Source: an uncultured Actinomycetota bacterium
GTDB taxonomy: Bacteria; Actinomycetota; Actinomycetes; Mycobacteriales; Jatrophihabitantaceae
Direction: 5' to 3'
DNA: 24,000 nt
Assembly: GCA_963785425.1 (NCBI GenBank)
Contig: CAWAVG010000002.1
Location: 495,731 to 519,730 of the forward strand
The notes beneath the pieces were generated by a model. That model saw only the letters and a program-made list of their open reading frames with translations, made no database searches and was not told the origin of the DNA. Below are positions 600 to 23,515 of this stretch, one piece after another (the stretch's first letter is position 1; every line of letters begins with the position of its first letter). A program made the position numbers and the translations under genes.

Positions 600-669
600 C
601 GCGAGTGGTCACTTGTGGCGCGAGTGGTCAGCTATAAGTGACCACTCGGTGCATAAGTGACCACTCGCG
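600..669. repeat. Nested double-palindrome intergenic repeat, copy 1 (GAGTGGTCA x2 direct, then TGACCACTC x2 inverted); possible bidirectional terminator
   Basis: GCGAGTGGTCAC (601-612) pairs perfectly with GTGACCACTCGC (657-668). CGAGTGGTCA (621-630) pairs perfectly with TGACCACTCG (639-648). The apical loop is 8 nt. The element lies between the convergent hbd stop (584) and the DivIVA-like stop (681). Confidence 0.9.
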
Positions 670-4777: not shown

Positions 4778-5749
4778 GTGCCCCGTCGCAACGTCGACCA
4801 AGCCGCGATCGACGACCTGGTCGAACGCACTCGCAAGTCCGAACCGCGGGCAGTAGCGCGACTGATCTCGCTCGTCGAGAACGATTCGCCGCGGCTGCGC
4901 GACGTCGCCGCCGCGCTCGCCCCACACGCCGGTCATGCCCAGTTCGTCGGGCTCACCGGCGCGCCGGGCGTGGGGAAGTCGACGACCACGTCCGCGCTGG
5001 TGACCACCCTGCGCGCGGCCGGCAAGACGGTCGGTGTGCTCGCGGTCGACCCGTCCTCGCCGTTCTCGGGCGGCGCCCTGCTCGGCGACCGCGTGCGGAT
5101 GCAGGACCATGCCACCGACACCGGGGTGTTCATCCGGTCGATGGCTTCGCGCGGGCAACTGGGCGGGCTCTCGGGAGCGGTACCGCAGGCATTGCGGGTG
5201 TTGGACGTGGCCGGCTGCGACGTCGTGCTCGTCGAGACCGTGGGCGTCGGCCAGGCCGAGGTCGAGATCGCCTCGCTGGCCGACACGACGCTCCTGGTGC
5301 TCGCGCCGGGGATGGGTGACGGCATCCAGGCCGCGAAGGCCGGCATCATCGAGGTCGCTGACGTGTTCGTCGTCAACAAGGCCGATCGCGACGGCGCCGA
5401 TCAGGTGGCGCGCGACCTGCGGTACATGCAGTCGCTGGGCGGGCGGCACAGCGACGCGGGCGCGTGGCGACCGCCGATCGTGAAGACGTCGGCCGCCCGC
5501 AACGAGGGCATCGACGAGGTCGTCGCCGCGATCGAGAAGCACCGCACGTGGATGGAGGAGCACGGCGAACTCGAACGCCGCCGCCGCGCCCGGGCGGCCA
5601 CCGAGATCGAGGCGATCGCCGTGGGGGAGGTGCGGCAGCGCTTCGCAGCGGTTCACGGATCGAAGGCGCTCGACGCGGCAGCAGCGCGCGTCGTGGCCGG
5701 CGAGACCGATCCCTACGCCGCCGCCGAGGACCTCATCGCGACGCTCTAG
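4778..5749 (+). CDS. meaB: Methylmalonyl-CoA mutase-associated GTPase MeaB/ArgK (G3E family)
   Basis: 323 aa with a GTG start. Walker A GAPGVGKST; G3E blocks VLAVDPSSPFSGGALLGDR, ETVGVGQ and VVNKADRD. Confidence 0.9.
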   Translation: MPRRNVDQAAIDDLVERTRKSEPRAVARLISLVENDSPRLRDVAAALAPHAGHAQFVGLTGAPGVGKSTTTSALVTTLRAAGKTVGVLAVDPSSPFSGGALLGDRVRMQDHATDTGVFIRSMASRGQLGGLSGAVPQALRVLDVAGCDVVLVETVGVGQAEVEIASLADTTLLVLAPGMGDGIQAAKAGIIEVADVFVVNKADRDGADQVARDLRYMQSLGGRHSDAGAWRPPIVKTSAARNEGIDEVVAAIEKHRTWMEEHGELERRRRARAATEIEAIAVGEVRQRFAAVHGSKALDAAAARVVAGETDPYAAAEDLIATL

Positions 5750-6963: not shown

Positions 6964-7635
6964 ATGCCCAGCCTGGACCGCGACGGAGAGGTCTTTCTAC
7001 TCGACCTCGGCGATACCGAGAACCGCTTCCATCCCGACTGGCTCAAGGAGGTGCAGCAGCATCTCACCGAGATCGACGCCGCCGAGGGCGACCGCGCACT
7101 CGTCACGACCGCCACTGGGAAGTTCTTCTCGAACGGGCTCGATCTCGAGTGGCTGTCGCAGAACGGCGAACGGTTCCTCGACTACGTCATCGACGTGCAC
7201 GCAGTGCTCGCGCGGCTGCTGGCGCTGCCGGCGCCGACGGTCGCCGCTGTGCAGGGACACGCGTTCGCCGGCGGCGGCATGCTCGCCCTCGCGCACGACT
7301 TCCGGGTGATGCGCGCCGACCGGGGGTTCTTCTGCCTGCCCGAGGTCGACATCAACATCCCGTTCACCCGAGGCATGTCGGGGTTGATCCAGGGCAAGCT
7401 CTCGCACAAGGCGGCGCACGAGGCGATGACGACCGGACGGCGTTACGGGGGCACCGACGCGCTCGCCGCGGAAATCGTCGACGCGGTCGCGCACGAGGAC
7501 GACGTGGTGTCCTCGGCGATCGAGCTGGCCCGTCCGCTCGCCGGGAAAGCGGGCACGACACTCGGGACGATCAAGGAGCGCATGTACGCGGACGCTCTCG
7601 CGGCGCTGCGAGACACCGACCACCCGATCGACTGA
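6964..7635 (+). CDS. Enoyl-CoA hydratase/isomerase (crotonase) family protein
   Basis: Only the last 223 aa of track ORF 6385..7635 look like protein (MPSLDRDGEVFLLDLG...GKFFSNGLDLEW...AVQGHAFAGGGMLALAHDFRVM). ATG at 6964. The upstream part of that ORF is antisense shadow of the hydrolase gene. Confidence 0.8.
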   Translation: MPSLDRDGEVFLLDLGDTENRFHPDWLKEVQQHLTEIDAAEGDRALVTTATGKFFSNGLDLEWLSQNGERFLDYVIDVHAVLARLLALPAPTVAAVQGHAFAGGGMLALAHDFRVMRADRGFFCLPEVDINIPFTRGMSGLIQGKLSHKAAHEAMTTGRRYGGTDALAAEIVDAVAHEDDVVSSAIELARPLAGKAGTTLGTIKERMYADALAALRDTDHPID

Positions 7636-7699
7636 CAGTGGTCAGTTCGGGCCTCAGTGGTCAGCTAGGACCGACCACTGGGGCCGAAACTAACCACTG
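7636..7699. repeat. Nested double-palindrome repeat, copy 2 (decayed: CAGTGGTCA x2 / CGACCACTG, TAACCACTG)
   Basis: Same two-direct, two-inverted layout as copy 1, with cores at 7636, 7655, 7672 and 7691. The 29-nt arms (7636-7664 and 7671-7699) pair with 4 mismatches and 1 wobble. It starts directly after the crotonase stop (7635) and overlaps the last codons and stop of the DUF2127 gene (7690). Confidence 0.8.
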
Positions 7700-8472
7700 T
7701 GGGGCGGGGCGGTGGGGGAGGAGCCGGCCGAGGATTCCTCGACCTCGAGCAGGGACGCCTCGTGCAGGGATTCCTCGTACGCCTTGTGGCCCCCGCGGAT
7801 GCCGAACAGCCGCTTCGACAGCAGCAGGTAGACGACTGCAGCCACGTTGATGATCAGGATGACAATCTTGAGCCAGCTGATCTTGTCGACGAGCTCGTAG
7901 ATCTCGAGCGGGATGAACGCCGTCGTCCCGACCACGGCCACGTATTCGCCCCACCGCTTGAGCGACCACAGGCCGATGCCCTCGGCGATCTGCAGGGCGG
8001 CGTAGAGGATCAGCGCGATGCCGATGCCGGTCAGCGTCGACGACTTCGCATGCAGGATCTTCTCGATCGAGGTCACCGTGCTCGAGTCGGACACCTTGAA
8101 GTGGATCTGTCGGAAGAACGGGTCGAGCGATGTCAGGTCTCTCTTGAAGACGTCCTGCAGGCTCACCTGCGTCGTCTTCAGCTCGAGCACTCCGATGCCG
8201 AGCAGGGCCAGCACCAAACCGCGGAACCACCGCTCGATGGCCAGGGCCCGGAGGATGAACGCGCTGCGCAGGGCCTTGCCCCTGAGCAGTACGGGAGCGT
8301 CGTCGGCCGGCCCGGCGCCGTTCGGCTCGCCGAGCACGTAGGTGCCGCACCGCAGGCACCGCCACGCACTACCCAGCGGAGTCCCCGCCTCGAGCTTCGC
8401 GCGGTACTCGGGCTCGTCCGGCGCGTAGGTCACGTGCCCCTTGCGGGAGCAGGTGCGCAGGTTCCAGTCCAT
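7690..8472 (-). CDS. DUF2127-like integral membrane protein with an N-terminal Cys-rich (zinc-ribbon-like) segment
   Basis: Start chosen at MDWNLRTCSRKGH...CLRCGTYV (ATG at 8472). It is followed by several hydrophobic helices (FRGLVLALLGIGVLEL, GIGIALILYAALQIAEGIGLW, YVAVVGTTAFIPLEIYEL, IVILIINVAAVVYLLL). The N-terminal 55 codons of the track ORF have no support. Confidence 0.65.
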   Translation of the reverse strand: MDWNLRTCSRKGHVTYAPDEPEYRAKLEAGTPLGSAWRCLRCGTYVLGEPNGAGPADDAPVLLRGKALRSAFILRALAIERWFRGLVLALLGIGVLELKTTQVSLQDVFKRDLTSLDPFFRQIHFKVSDSSTVTSIEKILHAKSSTLTGIGIALILYAALQIAEGIGLWSLKRWGEYVAVVGTTAFIPLEIYELVDKISWLKIVILIINVAAVVYLLLSKRLFGIRGGHKAYEESLHEASLLEVEESSAGSSPTAPPHSG

Positions 8473-11079: not shown

Positions 11080-11099
11080 TCCGGTTCCCCCGCGCGGTT

Positions 11100-11164
11100 G
11101 AGTGGCGCGTTCTGCCCGTAGGTGGCGCGATATCTCGCGCCACTCACCACGAAACGCGCCACTC
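11100..11164. repeat. Nested double-palindrome repeat, variant subfamily (GAGTGGCGCG / AGGTGGCGCGA, then TCGCGCCACT / CGCGCCACTC)
   Basis: The outer 10-mers (11100-11109 and 11155-11164) pair perfectly. The inner stem 11121-11130 with 11135-11144 has 9 bp plus one G-T, with loop TATC. It has the same layout and about 19-21 nt phasing as the GAGTGGTCA family, and lies between the convergent rpf and gcdH stops. Confidence 0.8.
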
Positions 11165-11184
11165 GATGGGACGGGGACGGGGTG

Positions 11185-14463: not shown

Positions 14464-14997
14464 ATGCCGCAGCCGCCGCTCGACTTCGACCCGATCGAAC
14501 GGGCCGGTGCGCTGTGGGAGCGCCATTGGCCGGACGAGCCGGCCGAGGTCTACGACTCGATGCGCGCGGTCACGTCCATCATGCGTGCGCAGCAGATTCT
14601 GATCGCCGAACTCGATGCCCGGTTGCGTCCCTACGGCATCACGTTCAGCCGGTACGAGGCGCTCGTCCTGCTGATGTATTCGCGCGGCGGTTCACTGCCG
14701 CTGTCGAAGATCGGCGAACGGCTCCAGGTGCACGCGACCTCGGTGACCAACGTGATCGACCGCCTCGAGTCGGCCGGGCTGGTGCGCCGCGAGCCCAATC
14801 CGCGCGACGGCCGCGGCACGCTCGCGGTGATCACCGACGAGGGCCGTGCCGTCGCGACGAAGGCGACCGCCGACCTGAACGCCGCGCGCTTCGGCATGTC
14901 GGCCCTGGAACGTCCGCAGCTCGCCCAGGTCTACGCGCTGCTGCGTCAGCTGCGCGCGGACGCCGGTGACTTCGGCCCGTCCCCGAGTGGTCATTAA
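14464..14997 (+). CDS. MarR-family transcriptional regulator
   Basis: Winged-helix block FSRYEALVLLMYSRGGSLPLSKIGERLQVHATSVTNVIDRLESAGLVRREPNPRDGRGTLAVITDEG. ATG at 14464; the alternative is GTG at 14440. Confidence 0.85.
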   Translation: MPQPPLDFDPIERAGALWERHWPDEPAEVYDSMRAVTSIMRAQQILIAELDARLRPYGITFSRYEALVLLMYSRGGSLPLSKIGERLQVHATSVTNVIDRLESAGLVRREPNPRDGRGTLAVITDEGRAVATKATADLNAARFGMSALERPQLAQVYALLRQLRADAGDFGPSPSGH

Positions 14998-15051
14998 TGG
15001 CCCGAGTGGTCACAAATAGCTGACCACTCGCGCCATAAGTGACCACTCGCG
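14982..15051. repeat. Nested double-palindrome repeat, copy 4
   Basis: CGAGTGGTCA at 14984 and 15003, TGACCACTCG at 15021 and 15040, with exact 19-nt phasing and an 8-nt apical loop. The first core overlaps the last codons and stop of marR (..CCGAGTGGTCATTAA). It lies between the convergent marR and sortase genes. Confidence 0.9.
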
Positions 15052-15962: not shown

Positions 15963-17627
15963 ATGACCGACGACACGGAGGCCGGCCGCGCGCGCTGGCA
16001 GGAGCGCTACGACGCCGCGCGCAAGCGCGACCGCGACTACACGACGCTGTCCGGGCTCGACGTCGACCCCGTGTACGGGCCGACGGGTCCGGATGACCGC
16101 ATGGAGCGCATCGGCTGGCCGGGCGAATACCCGTTCACGCGCGGGATCCACGCCACCGGCTACCGCGGCAAGCCCTGGACGATCCGTCAGTTCGCCGGCT
16201 TCGGCAACGCCCGGCAGACCAACGAGCGCTACAAGATGATTCTGGCCGAGGGCGGCGGCGGGCTGTCCGTCGCGTTCGACATGCCGACGCTGATGGGCCG
16301 CGACTCCGACGACGCGCGCTCGGTGGGCGAGGTCGGGCACTGCGGGGTCGCGATCGACTCGGCTGCAGACATGGACATCCTGTTCGACGGCATCGACCTG
16401 GCGACCACGACCACGTCCATGACGATCAGCGGGCCCGCCGTCCCGGTCTTCTGCATGTACGTGGTCGCGGCCGAGCGGCAGGGCGCCGACACGTCCGCGT
16501 TGAACGGCACCCTTCAGACCGACATCTTCAAGGAGTACATCGCGCAGAAGGAGTGGATCTATCCTCCCGAGCCGCACCTGAAGCTGATCGGCGACCTCAT
16601 GGAGTACGTCTCGACCCAGGCGCCGGCCTACAAGCCGATCTCCGTGTCGGGCTACCACATCCGCGAGGCCGGCTCGACGGCCGCGCAGGAGCTCGCGTTC
16701 ACCCTCGCCGACGGATTCGGCTACGTCGAGCTCGGCAAATCGCGCGGCCTCGACATCGACCAGTTCGCGCCCGGCCTGTCGTTCTTCTTCGACGCGCACA
16801 TCGACTTCTTCGAAGAGATCGCGAAGCTGCGTGCGGCCCGTCGCATCTGGGCCCGATGGATGCGCGACGTCTACGGCGCGAAGACCGACAAGGCGCAGTC
16901 GCTGCGTTTCCACACGCAGACGGCCGGTGTCTCGCTCACCGCCCAGCAGCCCGAGAACAATATCGTCCGCACCGCGATCGAAGCGCTGGCAGCGGTCATG
17001 GGCGGCACGAACTCGCTGCACACCAACGCCTTGGACGAGGTGCTCGCGCTGCCGTCCGAGAAAGCCGCGCAGATCGCCCTGCGCACGCAGCAGGTGATCG
17101 CCGAGGAGACCGGCGTCTTGAACGTCGCCGACCCGCTCGGCGGCTCGTGGTACGTCGAGGCCCTCACCGACAAGCTCGAAGCCGAGGCCGAGAAGATTTT
17201 CGACCGCATCAAGGACCTCGGTGGCGATGGCACGATCACGTCCGGGCTGCTGCGCGGCATCGAGGACGGCTGGTTCATCGGCGAGATCGCCGACGCGTCG
17301 TTCACCTATCAGGTCGCCTTCGAGAAGGGCGACAAGAAGGTCGTCGGGATGAACACGCTGATGGGCGACGTCGGCGAACCGTTGGAGATCCTGCGGGTGT
17401 CGCACGAGGTCGAGGTCGAGCAGCGCGACGTGGTCGCCCGGCGCCGCGCGTCGCGCGACCAGGCCACGGTCGACGAGGCGATCGCCCGCATGGTGCACGC
17501 CGCCGAGACCGGTGAGAACACCGTCCCGCCCATGCTCGACGCCGTGCGCGCCGAGGCCACCCTCGGCGAGATCTGCAACGCCTTCAAGCCGCTGTGGGGC
17601 GAATACCGCGAGCCGGTCAAGTTCTAG
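15963..17627 (+). CDS. icmA: Isobutyryl-CoA mutase large (substrate-binding) subunit, IcmA-type; no B12-binding domain
   Basis: About 554 aa and collinear with my recollection of S. cinnamonensis IcmA (WQERYD..RKRD, IGWPGEYPFTRG, WTIRQFAGFGN, GGGGLSVAFDMPTLMGRDSDD, GTLQTDIFKEYIAQKEW, FHTQTAGVSLTAQQP). It ends before any DxHxxG cobalamin domain. ATG at 15963; the alternative is TTG at 15954. Confidence 0.86.
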   Translation: MTDDTEAGRARWQERYDAARKRDRDYTTLSGLDVDPVYGPTGPDDRMERIGWPGEYPFTRGIHATGYRGKPWTIRQFAGFGNARQTNERYKMILAEGGGGLSVAFDMPTLMGRDSDDARSVGEVGHCGVAIDSAADMDILFDGIDLATTTTSMTISGPAVPVFCMYVVAAERQGADTSALNGTLQTDIFKEYIAQKEWIYPPEPHLKLIGDLMEYVSTQAPAYKPISVSGYHIREAGSTAAQELAFTLADGFGYVELGKSRGLDIDQFAPGLSFFFDAHIDFFEEIAKLRAARRIWARWMRDVYGAKTDKAQSLRFHTQTAGVSLTAQQPENNIVRTAIEALAAVMGGTNSLHTNALDEVLALPSEKAAQIALRTQQVIAEETGVLNVADPLGGSWYVEALTDKLEAEAEKIFDRIKDLGGDGTITSGLLRGIEDGWFIGEIADASFTYQVAFEKGDKKVVGMNTLMGDVGEPLEILRVSHEVEVEQRDVVARRRASRDQATVDEAIARMVHAAETGENTVPPMLDAVRAEATLGEICNAFKPLWGEYREPVKF

Positions 17628-17630
17628 TTC

Positions 17631-17700
17631 CGCGAGTGGTCATCTGTGGCGCGGGTGGTCGCTTATAGGTGACCACCCGGCGCGTAGGTGACCACTCGCG
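17631..17700. repeat. Nested double-palindrome repeat, copy 5
   Basis: CGCGAGTGGTCA (17631-17642) pairs perfectly with TGACCACTCGCG (17689-17700). The inner CGGGTGGTCG (17652-17661) pairs with TGACCACCCG (17670-17679). It fills the whole gap between the icmA stop (17627) and the crotonase stop (17701). Confidence 0.9.
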
Positions 17701-18465
17701 CTAGGTGGTGGCGGAGGTGCCGCCGTGGCGACCGGCGCCGGCCGCGAAGCGCTGCGCGCCGGCGAGGGCCCCGGCGATGACCTCGCGACCGTGGGCGAAC
17801 TCGCTCGCCAGAGCCGCGCTGGGTTCGGCGCCGAGAGCGGCATAGACCGAGCGGCGGTCCGAACGCAGGCAGTCCTGCGGCAGCTCGGCGAGTCGGGCCG
17901 CGAGTGCCTCCGCCTCGGCACGTGCGGTTCCCGGTTCGACGAGCCGGTTCGCGAGCCCGATCGCGAGAGCCTCGTCGGCCTCGACCGCACGTCCGGTCAG
18001 GATCAGGTCGAGCGCCCGGCCCAGGCCCACGATGTGGGGGAGTCGCACCGTCCCGCCGTCGATGAGCGGCACGCCCCACCTGCGGCAGAACACACCGAAC
18101 ACGGCGTCGCGGTCGACGACACGCAGGTCGCACCAGAGCGCCAGTTCCATGCCGCCGGCGACCGCATGACCGCTGACCGCCGCGATCACCGGTTTCGAGA
18201 GCTCGAGCCGGGACGGACCCATCGGGGCATCGGCATTGAGGTCGGCGTCGAGCGGGTTCGACATCTCGTGCAGGTCGGCGCCGGCGCAGAAGGTGCCACC
18301 AGCTCCCCACAGCACCGCAACCCGGGCCGCGTCGTCGGCGTCGAAGCGGCGGAACGCCTCGGCGAGCTCCGCGGCGGTCGGCCCGTCGACCGCGTTGCGG
18401 CGTTCGGGACGGTCGATGACCACCGTCCACACCGGCCCCAGCTTGTCGATCCGCACGTTGGCCAC
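17701..18465 (-). CDS. Enoyl-CoA hydratase (crotonase family)
   Basis: VWTVVIDRPERRNAVDG, WGAGGTFCAGADL, KPVIAAVSGHAVAGGMELALWCDLRV and PLIDGGTVRLP are crotonase signatures. GTG starts are possible at 18474, 18465 or 18456. The upstream part of the 406-aa track ORF is shadow. Confidence 0.85.
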   Translation of the reverse strand: MANVRIDKLGPVWTVVIDRPERRNAVDGPTAAELAEAFRRFDADDAARVAVLWGAGGTFCAGADLHEMSNPLDADLNADAPMGPSRLELSKPVIAAVSGHAVAGGMELALWCDLRVVDRDAVFGVFCRRWGVPLIDGGTVRLPHIVGLGRALDLILTGRAVEADEALAIGLANRLVEPGTARAEAEALAARLAELPQDCLRSDRRSVYAALGAEPSAALASEFAHGREVIAGALAGAQRFAAGAGRHGGTSATT

Positions 18466-20536: not shown

Positions 20537-21460
20537 ATGACCACTCACGGCACGCACGACTACGTCGAGGATCCGCGTAACGCCGACGTGCTCGTGTACG
20601 TCAACGGGGACCTTCTCCCGCGTGCGCAGGCAACGGTCTCGGTGTTCGACGCCGGGTTCGTCCTCGGCGACGGCGTCTGGGAGGGTCTGCGCGTCCACGA
20701 CGGGCACCCCGCGTTCCTCGAGCACCATCTCGACCGGCTCTACGAGGGCGCCGCGGCGATCATGCTGGACATCGGAAAATCGCGCGACGAGCTCACGTCC
20801 GAGATCTACCGCACGCTTGCAGCGAACGACATGCACGGCGACGGCGTGCACGTGCGGCTGATGGTGACCCGCGGACCGAAGTCGACGCCCTACCAGGACC
20901 CGCGCATGTCGGCCGGTCCGGCGACCATCGTGATGATCTGCGAGTACAAGGATCCGCTGCCCGCGACGGTCGAACGCGGACTGTCGCTGTTCACCGTGCA
21001 CGTGCGCCGTTCCGCTCCCGATGTGCTCGATCCGAAGCTCAACGCGCACAGCAAACTCAACGACATCACCGCGTGCATCCAGGCGTACACGGCCGGCGCC
21101 GACGAGGCACTGATGCTCGACCCGAACGGCTTCGTCGCCACCTGCAACTCGACCCACTTCTTCGTCGTCAAGCGCGGCGAGGTGTGGACGTCGTCCGGTG
21201 AGTACTGCCTGGGCGGAATCACGCGTGCCAACGTGCTGCGGGTCTGCGCCGAAGCCGGTATCCCCGCGTTCGAAAGGACATTCAGCCTCACGGACGTGTA
21301 CAGCGCGGACGAGGCGTTCGTCACCGGCACCTTCGCCGGGCTCGTACCCGTACACACCGTCGACGGGCGCACGATCGGCGGGGGATTGCGCGGGCCGGTG
21401 GTCGAACGGCTGCAGTCGCTCTACCAGAATCTCGTGCGCCGGGACGTCGCCGGCCGATGA
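20537..21460 (+). CDS. Class IV (fold type IV) PLP-dependent aminotransferase/lyase (BCAT / D-amino-acid aminotransferase / ADC lyase family)
   Basis: 307 aa from ATG at 20537, with RBS GGGAAGG 10 nt upstream. VSVFDAGFVLGDGVWEGLRV, HLDRLYEGA, VRLMVTRG, a Lys context LNAHSKLNDI, GITRANVL and ADEAFVTGT. Confidence 0.85.
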   Translation: MTTHGTHDYVEDPRNADVLVYVNGDLLPRAQATVSVFDAGFVLGDGVWEGLRVHDGHPAFLEHHLDRLYEGAAAIMLDIGKSRDELTSEIYRTLAANDMHGDGVHVRLMVTRGPKSTPYQDPRMSAGPATIVMICEYKDPLPATVERGLSLFTVHVRRSAPDVLDPKLNAHSKLNDITACIQAYTAGADEALMLDPNGFVATCNSTHFFVVKRGEVWTSSGEYCLGGITRANVLRVCAEAGIPAFERTFSLTDVYSADEAFVTGTFAGLVPVHTVDGRTIGGGLRGPVVERLQSLYQNLVRRDVAGR

Positions 21461-22173: not shown

Positions 22174-22186
22174 GCGGCGTCGGCAG

Positions 22187-23515
<1,329 letters not shown>

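Follow-up and report, generated by a model that had tools for sequence, protein, structure and literature searches.

Canonical terminators are scarce in high-GC actinobacteria, and how these bacteria end their transcripts is a standing question. To our knowledge, TRIT is the one conserved motif proposed so far, and we know of no partner or proven role for it. In the accessible part of their description (Gardner et al. 2011, PMC3152330), TRITs are palindromic, conserved in both sequence and structure, present in 147 copies in M. tuberculosis, mostly bidirectional, confined to Mycobacterium and located at about -8 from stop codons. Here, we describe a family of dispersed palindromic hairpin elements in a stretch of 24,000 nucleotides (the window) from an uncultured Actinomycetota bacterium of the Jatrophihabitantaceae (contig CAWAVG010000002.1, positions 495,731 to 519,730), and in related genomes. 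Each element consists of two direct copies of a conserved short box followed by two inverted copies, with a fixed period of 19 nt within each arm, and typically lies at or just behind a stop codon. The family is real and, as far as our searches show, undescribed.

By analogy, the closest precedent for this family is TRIT. The Mycobacterium motif pair CGAAA-N19-TTTCG, which we infer from PMC5217627 to be part of TRIT, occurs in none of the 52 copies aligned here. With TRITs taken as described in PMC3152330, both families are actinobacterial, palindromic and bidirectional, conserved in sequence as well as structure and dispersed in many copies, and for both a binding factor is suspected and the roles are putative. 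Both also sit tightly against stop codons, TRITs at about -8 and the present elements at a median of +14 with many overlaps. By the same text, and comparing the two families by description only, TRITs are restricted to Mycobacterium, whereas the present elements reside in Jatrophihabitans, Jatrophihabitantaceae and allied metagenome-assembled genomes (MAGs); that text also contains nothing of their two-box-per-arm layout.

A dispersed palindromic repeat at gene ends is a familiar kind of element, and it is the architecture of the present one that is distinctive. Like REP elements, which stabilise upstream mRNA and bind proteins, and like BIMEs, its copies are short GC-rich intergenic palindromes with both convergent and intercistronic placement and a consensus maintained across the family. 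They differ from REP/BIME repeats in forming one long hairpin with two direct boxes per arm at the fixed 19-nt period, in belonging to a different phylum, and in being single 2+2 units, with no mosaic clusters of alternating REPs and apparently no unpaired GTAG-type head. With the REPIN-RAYT systems of Pseudomonas and others, the family has in common a long hairpin in which the inverted units are conserved and the middle is less so, a non-autonomous nature, vertical persistence and lineage-specific expansion. However, a REPIN arm is one palindromic REP, whereas the present arm holds two non-palindromic direct repeats, and no repeat-flanked RAYT gene was found for the family in the ~0.5 Mb of DNA sampled. 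Uptake signal sequences of Haemophilus and Neisseria (PMC5217627) likewise build hairpins at the 3′ ends of genes from inverted pairs of a conserved short word, but they are abundant as single words throughout genes, while the present box is not enriched outside elements. Finally, miniature inverted-repeat elements (MITEs) such as Correia/NEMIS of Neisseria are similarly small, non-autonomous, strain-polymorphic, co-transcribed, hairpin-folding and able to alter gene ends. MITEs have conserved outermost termini and clear target-site duplications, whereas in the present family the outermost pairs are variable and signs of duplication ambiguous or lacking. In the portions of this literature consulted, the fixed two-box-per-arm layout at a 19-nt period is not described for TRIT, REP/BIME, REPIN, uptake-sequence or MITE systems.

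The window holds five copies (Table 1). Re-reading the reference copy, which is 70 nt long, reproduced the letters of the original prediction exactly, and fold prediction agrees with the nested double palindrome proposed there: an outer stem of 19 bp and an inner one of 10 bp, separated by a 3x3 internal loop and capped by an 8-nt apical loop. The fold energy is -55.3 kcal/mol, compared with -23.3 for dinucleotide shuffles (z = -10), and the opposite strand folds at -47.8 kcal/mol. All five elements form hairpins of ~30 bp on both strands (-47 to -59 kcal/mol, z -7 to -10). A repeat finder grouped the copies at 600-669, 7633-7702, 14982-15051 and 17631-17700 as one 70-nt family; a covariance model run on the window scored these four at 65-81 bits and the fifth, at 11097-11167, at 40 bits, with everything else at 13 bits or less. 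Boxes with at most one mismatch number 20 in the window against 5.6 expected, a count reached in none of 100 shuffles. Two descriptions needed amendment. The supposedly decayed copy at 7636-7699 is real, but it extends over 7633-7702, overlaps both stop codons and belongs to a second subfamily, B, with two mutated boxes. The sequence at 11100-11164, described as a variant of the same architecture, does have that architecture and represents a separate subfamily with the box GAGTGGCGC, which is kept at the same junction in three relatives and is also found elsewhere, in locus L104.

To collect further copies, one genome per species was scanned with the pattern AGTGGTCA-N11-AGTGGTCA, which forced exact boxes on one arm only and left the other arm free. 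The scan returned at least 111 loci (given L numbers) and at least ~55 further copies in Jatrophihabitantaceae-like genomes. The family alignment comprises 52 copies in 77 columns. In it, the 8-nt box AGTGGTCA is nearly invariant at all four positions, and every box is flanked on either side by two or three covarying pairs; those just 5′ of the boxes alternate between CG, AU and UA at the outer box and between CG, UA and AU at the inner box. The spacer middles are paired in about half of the copies. Under the specified structure, 84.5% of cells are paired, compared with 75.5% in column shuffles (none of 500 reached the observed value) and 29-40% when the 3′ partner is slid. Seventeen pairs show changes on both sides, clustered just outside the boxes, and RNAalifold, given no structure, returned the identical two nested helices. 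Covariation bears out the predicted fold. The outermost three to four pairs are the least conserved among paired positions; the nucleotides at the foot of the hairpin vary and covary, and the GTGG within the box lies inside the paired stem.

Such symmetry might also serve at the level of DNA. Gyrase binds to BIMEs in E. coli, and on that model a cruciform or four-site duplex would be bound by a chromosomal protein of the gyrase, nucleoid or translocase type and would relieve or mark topological stress at the ends of transcription units. The two-fold symmetry is indeed perfect, with both strands folding equally well, the apices are AT-rich or fully palindromic (cTTATAAg, GTTGCAAC), the box sequence is strictly conserved, G-T and A-C mismatches are not biased towards RNA-tolerated pairs, and the position at transcription-unit ends matches what is generally known of REP/BIME repeats. 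Yet duplex binding alone leaves the compensatory changes at non-conserved stem positions unexplained, lone boxes show no excess outside the elements (9 in 382 kb), and a spacing of 19 bp would put the boxes on different faces of B-DNA. We regard a DNA-level role as improbable, but as a rival still to be reckoned with.

The family is divided into subfamilies A and B, a TG-type and the family with the different box (Table 1), and distinct subfamilies are found together in single genomes. Its 19-nt units are gained and lost, as in a 2+3 copy in L087 and a 1+2 copy in L163. Arrays of two to four units also occur, all in one orientation, spaced at a strict period of 19 nt and lacking an inverted arm; one MAG carries arrays of three to four units, and one array, in L083, lies within a convergent junction. 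These arrays show that the 19-nt unit is able to amplify by itself.

Conservation can also be followed in place. In seven orthologous pairs, flanking stem positions are 60% identical, spacer middles 61% and coding flanks 72-92%, and the intergenic DNA immediately beyond the elements can no longer be aligned. Box identity is 95% (213/224 positions), a figure that is partly due to ascertainment, and the GAGTGGCGC trio, which was chosen by no pattern, shows the same conservation. At the mutase junction, the copies of the window and of L063 have the spacer segment TGTGGCGC in common, and hence are related by descent. The pairs beside their boxes differ on both sides (outer CG/CG versus AC/GT; inner CG/CG versus TC/GA), which argues that pairing has been maintained in place.

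Gene calls from codon-position GC content, with which Pfam agreed, resolve the window into 24 ordinary chromosomal genes, including genes of fatty-acid and propionate metabolism, a MarR regulator, an ECF-type sigma factor and a ParA/MinD-like ATPase; neither source revealed a mobile-element gene there. Seven junctions are convergent, six divergent and ten co-directional. In line with the original prediction, the repeat finder, covariance model and gene map place one element in each of the five roomy convergent junctions and none in any divergent or co-directional spacer of the window; the two convergent junctions without an element have no room for one, the genes overlapping by 4 bp at 5746-5749 and standing only 13 bp apart at 22174-22186. 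As a general rule, however, restriction to convergent junctions fails. Across all genomes, including the window's five, 66 copies were collected; among the 54 that could be classified, 24 are convergent, 26 co-directional, 4 divergent and none inside genes, against a background in the same loci of 38 convergent, 125 co-directional and 50 divergent roomy junctions. Tabulating orientation thus upholds the tie to gene tails, but not convergent placement as an exclusive rule: elements are placed just behind stop codons. Measured from the stop codon, elements lie a median of 14 nt away (interquartile range 0.5-31), and 18 of 71 stop-side distances are zero or less.

In some cases the elements supply or displace the stop codon itself. 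The copy at 7633 opens with the TGA at which the enoyl-CoA hydratase gene (+) stops, and the opposing DUF2127 gene (-) takes its stop (CTA at 7690-7692) from the mutated outer box of this copy, TAACCACT. An identical TAACCACT change likewise provides a stop codon in L160 (at 11947). At 14982, the stop codon that relatives have in the MarR-family open reading frame (ORF) is gone, and the frame runs on for six extra codons to a TAA at 14995-14997, within the element.

These placements bear on the proposal that the hairpin is an efficient bidirectional intrinsic terminator lacking a U-tract. Every roomy convergent junction of the window is occupied, the hairpins are very stable and canonical terminators are lacking. 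No T-run follows any window element on either strand, as had been noted from the letters, and consensus terminator-like sites in the window are at chance level (6 versus 4.6 expected); the one internal match, at 15045-15021, is within the chance rate. But 26 of the 54 classified copies are co-directional, and in 13 of 23 such cases the next start codon is at most 30 nt from the element, where termination would silence the downstream gene; many of these cases have strong gene calls on both sides. With the start codon so close, there is no room for a promoter, so these copies must be intercistronic and read through, which argues against efficient termination. In addition, a pure hairpin terminator needs no conserved boxes, and the mycobacterial polymerase requires a U-tract (PMC3993855). 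A strong or efficient terminator role is unlikely, and an efficient bidirectional one without a U-tract would surprise us greatly.

Gain and loss between relatives were followed in syntenic stretches of ~21.7 kb from seven genomes, which were reached by exact-protein look-up of homologues of the window's acyl-CoA mutase and searched with the model at full sensitivity (Table 1). Between an orthologous site with the element and one without it, the difference is a clean indel of ~70-75 nt that starts at or beside a stop codon. No copy is present in the stretch from the cultured Jatrophihabitans cynanchi (L157, CP097463). The stretches of the six relatives from other species carry 0-2 copies, compared with five in the window, so that the very abundant genomic family originally envisaged is not shown. 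In several relatives, a small DUF1059 gene lies between the mutase and hydratase genes; it is missing from the window (17628-17700), L164 and L162, and in the window the element therefore directly adjoins the mutase stop codon. Elsewhere, a 1.9-kb indel between related genomes (L007 460-2335 versus L087 3455-3457) begins exactly at an element's outer edge; the extra DNA in L007 holds ordinary-looking ORFs, whose predicted products resemble a DNA glycosylase, a DUF3253-like protein and a lipoprotein, with no transposase evident.

Gain and loss of this kind could be the work of a purely selfish, non-autonomous element of the REPIN/MITE type, whose boxes, folded in single-stranded DNA, would be recognised by a single-copy transposase encoded elsewhere in the genome (for example a RAYT-type Y1 HUH enzyme) that copies the element; the tail position would then be a tolerated insertion and the hairpin a substrate. 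The clean indels between close relatives fit this explanation, as do the expansion specific to the window's species (five copies in 24 kb versus 0-2 in syntenic stretches), the coexistence of subfamilies in one genome, the arms that gain or lose 19-nt units (L087, L163) together with the arrays in L001, L005 and L083, and the lack of a strand-specific RNA signature. Boxes that stay 95% identical in place where adjoining intergenic DNA cannot be aligned would, however, be unexpected for dead copies, and the outermost pairs are variable rather than conserved. Neither a RAYT-like ORF nor a recurring neighbour family was found in ~0.5 Mb of loci. Signs of a target-site duplication are equivocal: the L159 copy is flanked by GACGT, which is single in the empty L163 site, but GACGTC is palindromic, and no direct repeat flanks the copy in L160. 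A purely selfish element is possible, though on the unlikely side.

Roomy convergent junctions that are free of the family contain strong, perfect hairpins of unrelated sequence, at -0.5 to -0.62 kcal/mol per nt, whereas divergent and co-directional spacers reach -0.26 to -0.49; only two depart from this range, one at -0.53 and the other, which holds a tandem palindromic repeat array, at -0.62. Such hairpins, of 13-22 bp and without a U-tract, are listed in Table 1; in L161, one of them stands in for the element at the orthologous junction between the transglycosylase and acyl-CoA dehydrogenase genes. It seems that a hairpin at convergent junctions is wanted in itself and that the family is a portable supplier of it. 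The hairpins at family-free junctions are our main argument for a role at the transcript level. Between co-directional genes of L162 (13530-13640), seven tandem copies of a partly palindromic unit of 15-16 nt, TTCTGATCAGGACTG, fold at -81 kcal/mol.

We therefore tentatively favour a REP/TRIT-like mobile hairpin module that would form 3′-end or intercistronic structures in mRNA and whose boxes would be bound by a putative protein. Such a module, specific to a clade centred on the Jatrophihabitantaceae, would be, or would recently have been, mobile and would land at or just behind stop codons. Transcripts of the upstream gene would carry it as their tail, as would those of both genes at convergent junctions. 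We infer that the RNA folds into a two-storey hairpin of ~30 bp, which may act as a 3′-end or intercistronic structure by blocking 3′-to-5′ exonucleases and damping read-through into the neighbour, and which would do the same job as the unrelated one-off hairpins at other convergent junctions of these genomes. On folding, the four boxes would pair up as two identical double-stranded ones, which share one orientation and are stacked at a distance of 19 bp. These are candidate docking sites for a putative sequence-specific protein, which may serve the spread of the element, its end-forming function, or both. Among the three roles offered in the original prediction, the REP/BIME-like element of gene tails fits best, given the filled and empty orthologous sites; the U-less terminator sits badly with the co-directional copies near start codons, and the four-site duplex module with the compensatory stem changes.

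Several observations weigh against the mobile RNA hairpin module. Conservation of the boxes in the alignment is partly inflated by the requirement for exact boxes on one arm in the collection scan. In the co-directional copies (n=26), the sense strand has 19 G-U versus 36 A-C mismatches, the opposite of what selection on RNA alone would give, in a sample that is small and partly non-independent; without an RNA mismatch signature, selection could act on DNA hairpins instead. A tblastn search with E. coli RayT against the window and loci L001-L111 (~0.5 Mb of element-bearing DNA) returned nothing below E = 0.5, so that the RAYT partner suggested earlier was not found in this sample, though a partner may be encoded elsewhere in the genome, and no neighbouring gene family recurs: when 438 proteins from around the elements were clustered, ABC transporters and short-chain dehydrogenases were all that emerged. 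Furthermore, mycobacterial RNA polymerase needs a U-tract in vitro (PMC3993855), and predicted TRIT/I-shaped terminators overlap only 2-4% of the M. tuberculosis 3′ ends mapped by Term-seq (bioRxiv 10.1101/2022.06.01.494293).

Among the matches listed, full '++--' elements occur almost only in MAGs labelled Jatrophihabitans, Jatrophihabitantaceae, 'Pseudonocardiales', 'Actinomycetes' or 'uncultured Actinomycetota', and there is no Mycobacterium among the at least 111 loci listed. The closest homologues of the window's acyl-CoA mutase are labelled Jatrophihabitans or Jatrophihabitantaceae, which places the window in the Jatrophihabitantaceae clade. A MAG labelled Acidimicrobiaceae (CAVYMU) has a 92-nt version, which keeps the 2+2 boxes and in which the loop measures ~28 nt and the spacers are richer in AT; if this label is correct, the family extends past the class Actinomycetes. 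The scan pattern also matched tandem arrays of the heptamer (C)AGTGGT(C/T/G) in MAGs of Thermoanaerobaculia, Planctomycetota, Acidobacteriota, Armatimonadota and Poribacteria. These arrays have the word AGTGGTCA in common with the actinobacterial box, and at several loci reverse-complement arrays (TGACCAC/ACCACTG) follow 40-70 nt on, giving long heptamer-built hairpins. We take them to resemble the STRR heptamer repeats of cyanobacteria.

The original prediction did not recognise the core as a described repeat, and our searches agree. Rfam 15 gave no match at gathering thresholds and, below threshold, only generic microRNA-precursor hairpins. A literature search (for the core word, actinobacterial REP/RAYT/REPIN, Jatrophihabitans palindromes and convergent-gene repeats) brought up no description of the family. 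Other known kinds of sequence were rejected as well. An uptake-signal-like genomic word is ruled out by the 9 single AGTGGTCA in 382 kb outside elements, since 24% of 8-mers of the same GC content are at least as frequent. The 43 pattern matches in viral contigs came from an unrelated low-GC phage coding region and from chance, and plasmids gave no match. DnaA boxes, HAIR/CIRCE operators, integron attC sites, iterons and TraB/FtsK 8-mers were set aside by inspection, as their order, spacing or context did not fit. Three lone exact 9-nt boxes lie in or at genes of the window, one of them at a predicted start codon (ATGACCACTCAC); they are probably due to chance, as singletons are not enriched in the larger sample. 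In the N-terminal part of the window's ParA/MinD-like gene, overlapping TCGTCG/TCATCG repeats would encode an acidic, Asp-rich stretch of low complexity (Table 1).

Table 1. Coordinates of the elements, their parts and variants, orthologous sites and accompanying features. Positions are those of the window or of the locus named.
Feature	Location	Type or letters	Score (bits)	Context
Reference copy	window 600-669	subfamily A (CGAGTGGTCA)	80.9	3-hydroxyacyl-CoA dehydrogenase gene ends 584 (+); DivIVA-like gene ends 681 (-)
Boxes of reference copy	603-611, 622-630 (+); 639-647, 658-666 (-)	GAGTGGTCA
Loops of reference copy	618-620/649-651; 631-638	internal loop; apical loop
Second copy	window 7633-7702	subfamily B (ACAGTGGTCAGTT); right-arm boxes mutated: CGACCACT, TAACCACT	65	enoyl-CoA hydratase gene (+); DUF2127 gene (-)
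Third copy	window 11097-11167	second-box subfamily GAGTGGCGC, nested 2+2 architecture as in others	40	transglycosylase/LysM gene (+); acyl-CoA dehydrogenase gene (-)
Boxes of third copy	11100-11109; 11120-11129; 11136-11145 and 11155-11164	GAGTGGCGCG; AGGTGGCGCG; CGCGCCACTC (both)
Fourth copy	window 14982-15051	subfamily A	75.9	MarR-family ORF; sortase-like gene (-)
Fifth copy	window 17631-17700	subfamily A; inner stem compensated (GGGTGGTCG / TGACCACCC)	74.2	fills gap between acyl-CoA mutase stop (17625-17627) and enoyl-CoA hydratase stop (17701-17703) except 17628-17630
Subfamily A		cgCGAGTGGTCA(c/t)TT; apex cTTATAAg
Subfamily B		tgACAGTGGTCAGTT; apex GTTGCAAC
TG-type subfamily		TG-type
Different-box family	window 11097; L104 2092	GAGTGGCGC		orthologous sites in L159, L160, L164
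Syntenic relatives	L157, L159-L164	mutase identity to window		L164 ~100% (same species); L159 94%; L163 94%; L160 92%; L161 91%; L162 89%; L157 88% (J. cynanchi CP097463)
Orthologous site	window 7633			filled: L164 only (window's species); empty or different: all others compared
Orthologous site	window 11097			filled: L164, L159, L160; empty: L163, L162, L157; unrelated 21-bp hairpin: L161
Orthologous site	window 14982			filled: L164; truncated 1+2 copy: L163; none: L159, L160, L162
Orthologous site	window 17631			filled: L164; subfamily B copy: L063/L163 and L160; empty: L159, L161, L162
DUF1059 gene	L159 11754-11942; L160 11753-11947; L161 11757-11951; L163 11718-11942			between mutase and hydratase genes
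Unrelated hairpins	L161 5358-5417, 19745-19804; L157 18229-18293; L160 17838-17909; L162 15338-15433	perfect, 13-22 bp		convergent junctions
Same-orientation arrays	L001 160-239, L005 5902-5947, L083 3758-3822 and L046 2688-2714 (all MAG JAUHZW); L040 1066-1130	19-nt period
CAVYMU copies	L011 1198-1285; L023 5055-5142; L033 1038-1126; L075 7079-7166; L092 6138-6226	92-nt version
Heptamer arrays	L097 2840-3060; L030 3790-3925; L059 6176-6330; L060 7173-7271; L086 7015-7131; L045 6965-7068; L094 150-239	(C)AGTGGT(C/T/G)
Lone boxes	window 20538-20546, 22597-22605, 23413-23421	exact 9-nt box		in or at genes
Low-complexity repeats	window 23013-23123	TCGTCG/TCATCG		ParA/MinD-like gene (-)

Beside TRIT, the present family would be a second independent case, with an invariant box of 8 nt occurring twice per stem, clear compensatory evolution and insertions that rewrite stop codons. 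Very close relatives differ in copy number, and the syntenic region of the cultured J. cynanchi is free of elements; these contrasts make the partner protein and the function approachable by experiment and computation. Should the family prove to be only a selfish repeat, it would still be a new actinobacterial example of a REP-like element, in carriers known mostly from MAGs, and it offers a practical marker for the annotation of gene ends in these genomes. A bolder reading, which we think unlikely, is that a dedicated hairpin-binding protein recognises the twin boxes, and that the family constitutes with it a factor-dependent, sequence-specific 'gene-end' system, portable, inserting at stops and supplying them, and insulating in both directions, in an actinobacterial lineage poor in U-tracts. 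If that were true, phylogenetic profiling of element-bearing versus element-free Jatrophihabitans would give a handle on the long-suspected factor for termination or end formation of the TRIT type.

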